A DNA stretch of 64,000 nucleotides from Candidatus Magasanikbacteria bacterium RIFCSPHIGHO2_01_FULL_41_23 (GCA_001782805.1 MFPT01000019.1:1801-65800); one strand, 5' to 3'. Counted from the first letter of the stretch, positions 57,385-60,133 are shown. Translations and numbers: made by a program. Notes: generated by a model from the sequence alone, not told the origin.

Positions 57385-57930
57385 TTAGGCCATCAATGTA
57401 CCAGAATTCTCATAAAATTTAATATACGTATCTCTGAGCAGTCGCGCATCAGTGAGCGCGTTATGTTCGGTATACTTTTCTTTATCAATATTTAAGGATT
57501 TAAAAAATTCATGTTTTCCCATAGAGTTTGGCGAATAGCCAAGGCCAAATAAAATTGAGGCAAAATCAATCGGAATCCAGTACGCGGGATGTTCCTTAGT
57601 TGAGCCGAAAAGTTCGTACCAAAAAATCGCATCAAATTGATTGACATAAGCCATCAAGTATGGCTGGCTGTCGCCAATAAAAGTGCGAATTTTTTCGCAA
57701 GCAATTTCTTTGGTAATTTTTTCTTTATTTAAATAGGGGATGACTTTTTCCTCTACCCAAGGATGGACTGTCCCCTTGTACTCTAATTCTAAATATAATT
57801 CTTCGCCTGTATATTTAATCAATCCAATGGACAACAACTCCCCTGTTTTGGCGTTAAGATCAGTGAATTCAGTGTCAAGAAAAACAATATTATCTGAGTA
57901 TGGTTTGATCGGTATATTATTCTTCTCCAT
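57385..57930 (-). CDS. DEDDh-family 3'-5' exonuclease
   Basis: Exo I FLDTEFTDL and Exo III HNALTDARLL motifs. Confidence 0.7.
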   Translation of the reverse strand: MEKNNIPIKPYSDNIVFLDTEFTDLNAKTGELLSIGLIKYTGEELYLELEYKGTVHPWVEEKVIPYLNKEKITKEIACEKIRTFIGDSQPYLMAYVNQFDAIFWYELFGSTKEHPAYWIPIDFASILFGLGYSPNSMGKHEFFKSLNIDKEKYTEHNALTDARLLRDTYIKFYENSGTLMA

Positions 57931-57976
57931 ACAAAATGATAATTAAGACAATAATGTGTATGAAGAATATCAAAGT

Positions 57977-58585
57977 TTATGCATATTGACAAATGAGATT
58001 AGATTTTTGTTCGAATCTGTTATGCATCTTTTCTTCAGTAATAACGGTATAAACACTCACGCCATTTAACTCTTGCCACACATCATAATGCGGTTTGGTA
58101 AAATGTTTAATAATATATTTTTTTGGCAAAATTGCAAAATCGTAAGCGGAAAAAATGTTTAAGCGGCGCATATAATCAGCCGTGTTCGGACCCACTCCCC
58201 AAATTTTGTCGATCAGAAAGTCTCGCAAATATTCAGGCAAATCCTTTTGCGTAATAATACCCACGCCGTTTGGCTGATTGGTTGTTGAAGCCAATTTTGC
58301 CAATACTTTTGTCGGCGCCAAACCCACGGAAATCGTAATGCCTAATTCTTTTTTAACCGTTTGCCGAATTTTTTCCGCAATGTCTTCGTAACTGTTGAAT
58401 ATTGTTTCCAAACCGGTAATATCCAAAAATCTTTCATCATTATTATATTCTTCCACCATATTCGTAAAACGACGTAAAATTGCGAGAAGTCGTCGCCGTT
58501 CTGCTTGAGCTTGTTCAAACCGAGCAAAACAGGAATCGGCTTGGATGTGCACAATAGCTTGGGGAAATAATGTATTGTTAAACAT
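57977..58585 (-). pseudogene. Degenerate Y-family DNA polymerase (DinB/UmuC-like) remnant: internal deletion, catalytic Glu lost, little-finger domain absent
   Basis: MFNNTLFPQAIVHIQADSCFA aligns to the DinB N-terminus. SVGLAPTKVLAKLAS...IWGVGPNTA are palm/thumb motifs. Only ~200 aa, and the LDE motif reads LDI. Confidence 0.55.
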
Positions 58586-59159
58586 ATTTGCGAATAACAC
58601 TGGATACAACTCCGGCAATGTGTAATTCTTGGCGCGGATGAATATCAGGATAATTTTTGTTGGCCGGACGCAGGATTGTGCGCTCACCGCGTTTAATATA
58701 GTATTTCATGGTCCAATCATGGTCTACTTCGGCCACTACAATGTCTCCGGTTTTTGGATTACGCTTGCGATCGACAATTACCATGTCTCCTTGCATTATT
58801 CCGGCATCAATCATGGAATCCCCCGAAACCGTGAGCATATAACTGGATTCAGGATGTTCAATTAACCAGCGATCCAAACTCACAGTACTTGTCTCGACTT
58901 CTTCTTCGGCTGTAGTGGGAAATCCGGCCTGTACTGTTCCCAATACTCTTAATCCGTATAATCGTTCCGTGGGCATTAACTTTCCCGTACTTCCTTTCTC
59001 CAGTATCCCCTCTTCAATAAATTTTTGGACGTATCTGTGTAATGATCCCTTTGATTTGAGGTCAAACAGTTTGACCATTTCATCGTACGTTGGCAGGTGC
59101 TTAAATTTATGAAAGTAATTAATTAATTTTTTCTTGCGAGCGTCGTAGGTATGGCTCAT
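58578..59159 (-). CDS. lexA: LexA-type SOS repressor (HTH + S24 peptidase)
   Basis: N-terminal winged HTH, Ala-Gly cleavage site (VQAGFP), SGDSM nucleophile, Lys in TMKYY. Confidence 0.8.
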   Translation of the reverse strand: MSHTYDARKKKLINYFHKFKHLPTYDEMVKLFDLKSKGSLHRYVQKFIEEGILEKGSTGKLMPTERLYGLRVLGTVQAGFPTTAEEEVETSTVSLDRWLIEHPESSYMLTVSGDSMIDAGIMQGDMVIVDRKRNPKTGDIVVAEVDHDWTMKYYIKRGERTILRPANKNYPDIHPRQELHIAGVVSSVIRKYV

Positions 59160-59168
59160 ATAATGGAA

Positions 59169-59999
59169 TCATATATTTAACAAATTTTTATCATTATTTG
59201 GAGTAATTACTTTTTTGCCAGTTTTATTTTCAATACTTTTACGGGCATCGCCAGCAATTTTTCCTCCGGTTCTGGCCACTTCCTTATTTTCTTGAAAAGT
59301 TTCCGGATTTTTAGTTTTTGAGATTTCTGTGGTGGCGGTCTCGGCTAACATGTTCAGTACTAGCTCTAAATTCGTCATGTTGTCGCGTAAATTTTCTTTA
59401 GTTAGACCCTTTAATTTTTTATAATTTTTAGTTTTAATTCCAGTCCAGGCTTTGGTTATCTCATCAGTCAAAATAGCAAATTGAAAACCTTCCTTTATCC
59501 CTCTTTTCTCCCATTCATTAGTTAAATCTTTTCTAACCTCAATACTCTTTAGTCTTTGGTTGATCCATTCCGAACCGTATCCTTTTTGAGCATAAATTCT
59601 GAGTGCGCGATTTATACTTAGCTCTGGGTCAGCTATTTCTTCCAGTCTTTCATAACCCACTTGAGCGAGCCAAAGTTTGAAAGGTTCGGCTTTTGGAGAT
59701 GGAATTGACTGGATAATGCGGAGAATTGTTTCTGTATCGGCTGCGTCAGTTAACCGGCTTTTTCCATCCTGAGCAATCATTTTCAACTGGTTACATTTTG
59801 TAACCGTTTGACTTCCTTCTCCCCTTAACCTGTTTTTAAGAACTTTCCAATAGTTTCGAGCTAATTGAAAATCGAGCTGTTCAGTCAGAATCTGAATAAC
59901 ATCGACCACTGAAAAATACCACAGCTCTCTGGAGTCATCCCAAAGCCGACGGATTTGTTTGCCTTCAAATAAAGCAACTTTAGTATTTTTTGTTTCCAT
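59169..59999 (-). CDS. DinD-like DNA-damage-inducible protein
   Basis: Collinear similarity to E. coli DinD (ELWYFSVVDVIQILT / NYWKVLKNRL and the C-terminal region). Immediately upstream of lexA. Confidence 0.5.
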   Translation of the reverse strand: METKNTKVALFEGKQIRRLWDDSRELWYFSVVDVIQILTEQLDFQLARNYWKVLKNRLRGEGSQTVTKCNQLKMIAQDGKSRLTDAADTETILRIIQSIPSPKAEPFKLWLAQVGYERLEEIADPELSINRALRIYAQKGYGSEWINQRLKSIEVRKDLTNEWEKRGIKEGFQFAILTDEITKAWTGIKTKNYKKLKGLTKENLRDNMTNLELVLNMLAETATTEISKTKNPETFQENKEVARTGGKIAGDARKSIENKTGKKVITPNNDKNLLNI

Positions 60000-60046
60000 A
60001 ATTTTCTTTTAAAAAAAATATTGCAACCGGATAAAAGTAGTATAGA

Positions 60047-60060
60047 GAACATTTGTTCTC
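60047..60060. promoter_or_regulatory. Cheo-type LexA/SOS box (AGAACATTTGTTCT; GAAC-N4-GTTC)
   Basis: Perfect palindrome ~50 nt upstream of the dinD-like start (minus strand), at the head of the dinD-lexA-polY'-exonuclease gene string. Confidence 0.6.
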
Positions 60061-60133
60061 ATAGCAAGAGAAGTTGTGTGGATAACTTTTTAATTAATAC
60101 CTCCCCGATTGGCTTCGGGGTAAAAGAAATTCA

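Follow-up and report, generated by a model that had tools for sequence, protein, structure and literature searches.

A predicted self-repressed lexA-dinB operon of Candidatus Magasanikbacteria, remodelled by a DinD-family insertion and by loss of DinB domains

What kind of DNA damage response is encoded by four closely packed genes of Candidatus Magasanikbacteria, an ultra-small groundwater bacterium, and where does the unit end? The genes lie in a single stretch of 64,000 nucleotides (nt) from Candidatus Magasanikbacteria bacterium RIFCSPHIGHO2_01_FULL_41_23, called the window below; the scans for boxes and regulon members cover these 64 kb. A preliminary description had presented them as one self-regulated SOS-type cassette, composed of a DinD-like gene, lexA, a degenerate Y-family polymerase gene and an exonuclease gene. 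The four open reading frames (ORFs) are found on the minus strand as described there, at 59999-59169, 59159-58578, 58585-57977 and 57930-57385, and encode proteins of 276, 193, 202 and 181 amino acids (aa), respectively. The first gene is separated from lexA by 9 nt, lexA and dinB overlap by 8 nt (ATGTTTAA), and a gap of 46 nt precedes the exonuclease gene (exo).

The locus is best read as a chromosomal, self-repressed lexA-dinB SOS operon of Candidatus Magasanikbacteria that has probably been remodelled twice, by the insertion of a DinD-family gene and by the loss of domains from DinB, while exo would be an independent gene. We give this reading a probability of roughly 80%. For comparison, relatives were surveyed with one genome per species (GTDB), which yielded 80 loci encoding this type of LexA, 74 of them with enough upstream sequence. 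In 61 of the 80 representative genomes, lexA is directly followed by a full-length dinB. The chromosomal order gltX, M23 peptidase, lexA, dinB, exo, followed by a convergent ftsQ/femAB/mur group, is maintained across many Magasanikbacteria. Many of the 80 genomes are labelled as Patescibacteria lineages, and the initial statement that few reduced genomes retain LexA was too strong.

The lexA promoter and its repressor

A 16-bp palindrome, GAGAACAAATGTTCTC (GAGAAC-AAAT-GTTCTC), is located at 60045-60060, upstream of the first gene. It is a predicted LexA operator of the Cheo-box type, with a GAAC-N4-GTTC core at 60047-60058. The perfect box reported in the preliminary description is present, but its coordinates (60047-60060) had to be corrected. 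The palindrome fills the 17-nt spacer of a predicted minus-strand promoter (60039-60067), with TTGCTA as the -35 element (60067-60062) and TATACT as the -10 element (60044-60039). In a consensus scan, this promoter reached nine of 12 matches.

Taken by itself, the 12-mer core is not beyond chance in the window: one match was found versus 0.81 expected, and 58 of 100 shuffled sequences contained at least one. The operator is judged to be real because of its position in the promoter and its conservation, and not because of the core count. Essentially the same arrangement, CTTGCTAT-GAGAACAAATGTTCTC-TATAcT, is found in seven related loci (operator 7/7), whose LexA proteins are 69-89% identical to that of the window, while the surrounding non-coding DNA has diverged. 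On a wider scale, 59 of the 74 related genomes have a perfect GAAC-N4-GTTC in the 200 nt before lexA, and several of the remaining lexA loci carry GTAC-N4-GTAC variants. In the metagenome collection, the 20-mer formed by the box and the -10 element, GAGAACAAATGTTCTCTATA, has nine occurrences, of which eight immediately precede lexA genes. Self-regulation, as initially proposed, is well supported by these comparisons: the Cheo-type operator is placed inside the promoter of the predicted repressor's own operon.

Identical copies of the 20-mer are also present at L101 1339-1358, L103 225-244 and L104 1229-1248, before lexA genes that are only 28-29% identical to the one of the window. These more distant LexA proteins begin with MEITTRQKEIL... 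Hence, the operator appears to be common to distinct LexA clades. The ninth match (L105, TARA) has no recognised lexA adjoining it.

The repressor gene itself (58578-59159, minus strand) encodes a 193-aa LexA-type protein, with a predicted N-terminal DNA-binding region and an S24 peptidase domain (PF00717, 2.9e-28). The TIGR00498 lexA model aligns along residues 15-192 (model positions 18-202), and the alignment with E. coli LexA starts at residue 22. In a PDB search, UmuD and LexA were matched at 1e-16 to 1e-17, and the cleavage region VQA78-G79FP, Ser115 (in GDSM) and Lys152 align with their counterparts in these proteins. Seven orthologues all have the A78-G79 site and the S115/K152 dyad. 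Loss of the catalytic Ser and Lys had been named as an observation that would speak against LexA; both residues are present, and together with the Ala-Gly site they uphold the identification as LexA. All four proteins of the locus are present in public collections with four NCBI accessions each, which for the polymerase homologue means one per metagenome-assembled genome (MAG) record of the population. In RIFCSPHIGHO2_01_FULL_41_23 they are OGH64233-OGH64236, with 100% identity for the first protein. The first is labelled in the public records as an antirepressor and the exonuclease as uncharacterised, the polymerase homologue is hypothetical or a UmuC-domain protein, and LexA is given only as a hypothetical or S24-domain protein.

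From these elements, a regulatory loop can be proposed. A LexA dimer would bind the 16-bp palindrome between the -35 and -10 elements and block RNA polymerase. Upon DNA damage, RecA filaments would trigger self-cleavage of LexA at A78-G79, through Ser115 and Lys152, which would allow transcription of the DinD-family gene, lexA, the shortened dinB and perhaps exo. The loop would then be closed by newly made LexA.

A second conserved element may contribute to this promoter. A perfect DnaA-box consensus, TTATCCACA, is located on the minus strand at 60077-60085, 9 nt upstream of the -35 hexamer. Four perfect DnaA boxes are present in the window versus 0.51 expected, the others being at 846-854, 11237-11245 and 12104-12112. 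Among the 74 related lexA loci, 23 have a DnaA box (at most one mismatch, either orientation) 19-30 nt upstream of the LexA box, for a background expectation of about 1.5. These 23 include the 13 closest relatives. The pattern suggests an input of DnaA at the lexA promoter, by a binding that is predicted from the motif. A literature search gave no report of a DnaA box connected with a lexA promoter.

A DinB homologue reduced to palm and thumb

The third gene (57977-58585, minus strand) encodes a 202-aa protein, here called mini-DinB, which corresponds to the palm and thumb of a Y-family polymerase. Its ATG overlaps the lexA stop codon. DinB models are matched only at positions ~78-241 of 357. 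In Pfam, IMS (1e-19) and IMS_HHH (1.3e-4) are recognised, with the palm core and the helix-hairpin-helix of the thumb present. Alignment with close full-length relatives reveals an internal deletion of ~57 residues, equivalent to the fingers domain. Everything past the thumb is missing as well, i.e., the little finger and the C-terminal clamp-binding tail, as the ORF ends at residue 202, just before the intergenic gap preceding exo.

The deletion is accompanied by substitutions in what is left. Of the catalytic carboxylates (E. coli numbering, verified), D103 and E104 are kept in all three known carriers, but D8, the first catalytic Asp, is replaced by Q, Q or E, with Q in the window. Furthermore, C stands in place of F12 and Q or R in place of K157, and the deletion has removed the positions of Y46, R49 and Y79. 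By their roles in Pol IV, we take D8, F12, K157, Y46, R49 and Y79 to be catalytic or to contact the incoming deoxynucleoside triphosphate. The structural residues of palm and thumb, on the contrary, are retained, as assessed at the positions with a conservation of 85% or more among 61 intact neighbours. AlphaFold predicts a compact protein with a disordered tail (predicted local distance difference test, pLDDT, 86; predicted template modelling score, pTM, 0.83), and the best PDB match of the model is E. coli Pol IV (template modelling score, TM, 0.79). Judging from the missing parts, mini-DinB cannot be a polymerase.

The identical deletion is common to three lineages: the one of the window, P0002 (77% identity) and P0003 (82%). 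The next relatives (L003, L006, L013 and L018-L024) possess intact DinBs of ~410 aa. The short form is absent from all 61 GTDB neighbours, each of which has a full-length DinB, and a scan of metagenomes with the three-sequence alignment gave no further mini-DinB. Other short DinB matches are fragments at contig edges or still contain the fingers. Published surveys discard truncated sequences (PMC12926913).

A protein with two of four domains gone could be the functionless remnant of a pseudogene, its reading frame open by chance. The altered D8 and the C-terminal tails, which differ among the three carriers, fit this idea, as do the confinement of the short form to one narrow clade and the fact that other DinBs of the group appear truncated on long contigs. 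However, the pattern of substitution is that of a maintained gene. Among the three carriers, the core shows a nonsynonymous difference (pN) of 0.09-0.10 versus a synonymous one (pS) of 0.72-0.76, with synonymous sites saturated (Fisher p ~1e-34). When pN is scaled to that of lexA in the same pairs, mini-dinB gives 1.18-1.40, and 54 pairs of full-length genes have a median of 1.22. This relative constraint equals that on intact orthologues; hence, mini-dinB is not a decaying pseudogene, and the retained part has seen no relaxation since the deletion. The sharing of the deletion by three lineages, the conserved start codon and its overlap with the lexA stop, the confidently predicted fold and the preserved structural residues also argue against a remnant. 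The pseudogene explanation was rejected on pN/pS and is considered very unlikely.

The polymerase had been called degenerate in the preliminary description. This holds for its catalytic features, which are lost, but the gene is not simply decaying. We conclude from these comparisons that mini-DinB is a maintained, non-polymerising palm-thumb protein, presumably kept as a non-catalytic partner or regulator.

The DinD-family gene, the exonuclease and the borders of the operon

The first cistron (59169-59999, minus strand; 276 aa) encodes a DinD-family protein with a Bro-N domain. Pfam Bro-N is matched at 1.7e-7 and is also carried by E. coli DinD, at ~1.5e-7 for both. In PADLOC, both proteins are filed under PDC-S13, a candidate defence system: the window protein matches PDLC04920 at 4e-131 and the model of DinD at 8.1e-7, and E. 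coli DinD matches its own PDC-S13 model at 2.4e-121 and PDLC04920 at 2.2e-16. By these reciprocal matches, the original designation as DinD-like is correct at the family level. It does not extend to the equivalog level: the NCBI DinD model NF008573 gives no match to the window protein at E up to 1, versus 488 bits for E. coli DinD. Direct comparison of the two proteins is also weak (BLASTP, 27% over 110 aa, E 5e-4; hhalign, 19.6% probability). No solved structure was found for the window protein by sequence-profile search, and a literature search on PDC-S13 returned nothing. The N-terminal 267 positions of a PADLOC model, 'Type I specificity subunit', are also recognised in E. coli DinD (dinD at L005 5761-6585; 3e-114), which indicates that DinD-like modules are fused to some restriction specificity subunits.

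In E. coli, DinD is SOS-induced and involved in the removal of RecA filaments (PMC4849656, citing Uranga et al. 2011). The window protein has the same length, Bro-N and a homologous C-terminal domain, and both genes stand behind a LexA operator. Unlike E. coli DinD, it belongs to a different subfamily, and its predicted control by LexA would stem from a recent insertion.

This insertion, between promoter and lexA, is lineage-specific. In L001, L002, L003, L006 and L008, no DinD-family gene is present between box and lexA, and promoter and box lead straight to lexA. None of the 80 GTDB loci has such a gene within 5 kb, and overall it was found in only two of about 100 loci, the window and L013, where it occupies 5001-5831 with the same 9-nt junction to lexA. 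As the first cistron behind the operator, it is predicted to be under LexA control, and it would now be the first gene released upon LexA cleavage. Between the window and L013, identity amounts to 89% for the DinD-family gene, 81% for the flanking LexA and 63% for the M23 peptidase. The closest LexA relatives of the window, L001 and L002 (89%), lack the gene. This distribution points to repeated loss or to transfer of the insertion between lineages.

The label of this first protein raises the possibility that the whole block belongs to a prophage, a mobile element or a defence island, with a Bro-N antirepressor paired with a CI-like S24 repressor. Besides its annotation and the PADLOC defence-candidate model, the protein matches phrog_15286 over its full length (3.6e-119). 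Its family is very large, and members from distant candidate phyla are 70-74% identical; those examined are found in unrelated contexts, without a LexA box upstream. These features characterise the first gene only, which alone behaves as mobile. LexA, the polymerase homologue and a 371-aa ORF next to the operon have no PADLOC match, and the exonuclease has only a generic DEDDh match. No integrase or phage genes are present among the annotated flanking genes, in the window or in related loci, and lexA-dinB occupies its conserved chromosomal neighbourhood in many Magasanikbacteria. The mobile-element explanation of the whole block was rejected on this synteny, and we regard it as extremely improbable.

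At the other end, exo (57385-57930, minus strand) encodes a predicted DEDDh 3'-5' exonuclease of 181 aa. The DEDD assignment in the preliminary description is borne out by intact motifs (DxE, D and H-x4-D; residues D19, E21, D100, H156 and D161), invariant in 35 homologues. More than 500 homologues were found, mostly in Magasanikbacteria. The AlphaFold model (pLDDT 92) has an Rv2179c/RNase AS-like fold, with RNase AS, RNase T and Pol III epsilon as best PDB matches (TM ~0.65). It shares motifs and fold with these enzymes but, unlike them, scores under the cutoff of every curated family tested (RNase_T, Rv2179c-like, RNase AS and DnaQ; 22.7 vs. 24, 21.6 vs. 27 and 30.4 vs. 200).

Is exo, then, the tail of a dedicated four-gene damage cassette, in which the exonuclease would work with the polymerase or replace it? 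The genes are tightly packed and co-directional, no terminator-like site was found between mini-dinB and exo, and the order dinB-exo recurs in the closest relatives; in the mini-DinB clade, the deletion has also left exo only 46 nt behind the operon. In relatives, however, 250-350 nt or an extra gene lie between dinB and exo. Moreover, exo has a predicted promoter of its own (57964-57992, minus strand), TTGTCA-N17-TATTCT with a TG, situated inside the last codons of mini-dinB and conserved in L001, L002, L013 and L006. In L009-L012, exo is found at the same place beside the convergent ftsQ-femAB-degT-mur genes in the absence of lexA-dinB there. Conversely, the 1.23-Mb chromosome OZ246405.1 carries lexA-dinB elsewhere with no exo within 5 kb, and L023 has lexA-dinB without exo. 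Its own promoter and its presence at the same site without lexA-dinB make exo a neighbour and not a part of the cassette. Judged from synteny, the exonuclease gene is independent and conserved in its place; adding the rarity of the DinD-family gene, a dedicated four-gene cassette, as originally proposed, seems quite unlikely. Read-through from the LexA promoter into exo may still occur, because no terminator-like site intervenes.

The C-terminal '...LICQ' of mini-DinB is encoded by the -35 element of the exo promoter. This explains why the LICQ tail is common to the window and L001, while the rest of the tail is not. The dinB-exo spacer that was deleted in the window is 250-350 nt long and GC-rich in relatives with an intact DinB (L006 5658-5960; L013 7654-7950; partly L002 1290-1500). 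A long-range stem closes the spacer, with a sequence that varies from locus to locus, and the folding is only weakly better than that of shuffled sequences (z -2.15 and -1.49). No Rfam family was detected in these spacers or in the window.

Beyond exo, a candidate dif (Xer) site, GTCGCATAA-GATATA-TTGTGCGAC, is located at 57336-57359 (minus strand). It is terminator-like in the scan and could also be a terminator hairpin. It lies in the 58-nt gap between the convergent ftsQ and exo: every gene up to 57326 is on the plus strand, all later genes are on the minus strand, and the sign of the GC skew switches there. In 14 of 16 related loci, the same exo/ftsQ junction carries the conserved arms around a variable 6-bp centre. 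The window probably spans the replication terminus.

The remaining genes of the window are housekeeping genes, encoding IF-2, LeuRS, GDH, MsrA/B, an AddA-type helicase-nuclease, GltX, an M23 peptidase, FemAB and FtsQ, and no tRNA genes were found in it. In the leucyl-tRNA synthetase (8242-11133), the editing domain is followed by an inserted NUDIX domain (residues 389-504). The 371-aa ORF mentioned above (60134-61249), between the M23 peptidase gene and the operon, contains a HELRH (HExxH-like) motif; no Pfam, NCBIfam, PHROG or PADLOC model matches it, and its exact sequence is absent from the protein collection. In each relative, this position is occupied by different small genes.

Local or global repressor, and relation to known systems

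What comparison establishes is the predicted operator with its promoter geometry and the catalytic residues, the linkage of the genes, the insertion, and the loss of domains with selection on what remains. Several points nevertheless weigh against the reading of a remodelled, self-repressed SOS operon. The TIGR00498 score of LexA lies just below the NCBI cutoff (109.3 vs. 110.95 bits). Its C-terminal domain is as UmuD-like as it is LexA-like, reaching by itself 108.7 bits with the UmuD model (cutoff 110), and the Pfam model of the LexA DNA-binding domain gives no match even at E = 10, so that the sequence of the N-terminal domain, where a winged helix would be expected, resembles LexA only weakly. 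Searches for further boxes in the window, with the exact core, with one mismatch and with the 14-mer at up to three mismatches, gave none above chance. The preliminary description had named a genome without other Cheo boxes as evidence against its proposal, and within the 64 kb covered this box is the only one. For mini-DinB, the estimate of selection comes from three sequences of one narrow clade, and an exhaustive search of 1.84 billion representatives returned the deletion only in the window's own cluster. Finally, we infer binding, cleavage, induction and all protein functions from the sequence.

Some of these points would equally fit an S24 protein that is not the global SOS repressor but a local regulator of the adjacent polymerase gene, UmuD-like or of the HdiR/UmuDAb kind, with a regulon limited to this operon. 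After cleavage, its C-terminal fragment might even serve as a UmuD'-type partner of DinB. The near-equal UmuD and LexA scores, the best PDB match (UmuD), a UmuD-like linker (VQAGFP...LIEHP) and the coupling or adjacency to dinB in 61 of 80 genomes are in line with this explanation, as is the lack of a second box in the 64 kb, where an AddA-type helicase-nuclease is also encoded. On the other side, the LexA alignment is full length, N-terminal region included, and the operator is of the classical Gram-positive LexA type. A length of 64 kb is too little to exclude other targets, and Sanchez-Osuna et al. (2017) reportedly described a multi-gene SOS regulon for patescibacterial LexA. A regulator restricted to its own operon is unlikely, and the remodelled SOS operon remains the preferred reading.

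The core of this operon is not a new system. The 2017 description of the Patescibacteria SOS response by Sanchez-Osuna, Barbe and Erill is said to match the lexA-dinB core arrangement seen here, and a lexA-dinB pair with a Cheo-type box would already be expected for this group. By comparison with what is reported there, the window differs by its DinD-family first cistron, its palm-thumb DinB and the DnaA box flanking the promoter; these three features set it apart. The similarities are an S24 Ser/Lys LexA, a Gram-positive-type GAAC-N4-GTTC before its own gene, and dinB as a core target (PMC8565304). Across phyla, the core LexA targets are lexA, recA, dinB and umuDC (PMC8565304).

The Bacillus subtilis LexA (DinR) also uses a Cheo box, with a GAAC-N4-GTTC core that overlaps the promoter and serves autoregulation. 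In the window, the core is flanked by GA...TC rather than by C...G, and the protein is only distantly related, with its TIGR00498 score at the cutoff. With umuDC and UmuDAb, the locus shares an S24 autoprotease gene placed immediately upstream of, and coupled to, a Y-family polymerase gene, as well as a C-terminal domain that resembles UmuD and LexA alike. In contrast to these systems, the window protein possesses an operator of its own and, at the N-terminus, a predicted DNA-binding region resembling that of LexA. The polymerase, moreover, is of the DinB and not of the UmuC type, and is predicted to be non-catalytic.

For a non-catalytic Y-family protein, the nearest precedent is ImuB, of the imuA-imuB-dnaE2 cassette. 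In ImuB, the entire polymerase fold is preserved and extended by a C-terminal region. Mini-DinB, on the contrary, lacks whole domains and the C-terminus, and no imuA or dnaE2 is adjacent in the window. The resemblance lies in the fate of the protein: ImuB, a Y-family homologue under LexA control, no longer has its catalytic residues but is kept as a non-catalytic factor, for which a clamp interaction and a RecA-NT motif have been described (PMC6511836, PMC11791113).

A bolder proposal can be formulated only tentatively, its parts taken jointly being somewhat less probable than even. According to this proposal, the palm-thumb DinB would function in the SOS response without catalysis and represent a new, minimal class of Y-family derivatives, translationally coupled to LexA and maybe binding the UmuD-like C-terminal fragment of LexA or RecA. 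In addition, a DinD-family gene would have been recruited to LexA independently of E. coli, and the lexA promoter of Magasanikbacteria would be co-controlled by DnaA, acting at the conserved box next to it.

For the biology of these bacteria and of the protein families involved, each of the variant features has its own implication. In a phylum distant from that of E. coli, a DinD-family gene again stands behind a LexA operator, a hint that the damage response and this little-understood family may be linked repeatedly. With a conserved DnaA box next to the LexA operator, one promoter may sense both the state of replication and damage to the DNA. A polymerase stripped of its fingers and little finger, but under normal purifying selection, suggests that palm and thumb may have a role independent of polymerase activity, which could here be studied in isolation.

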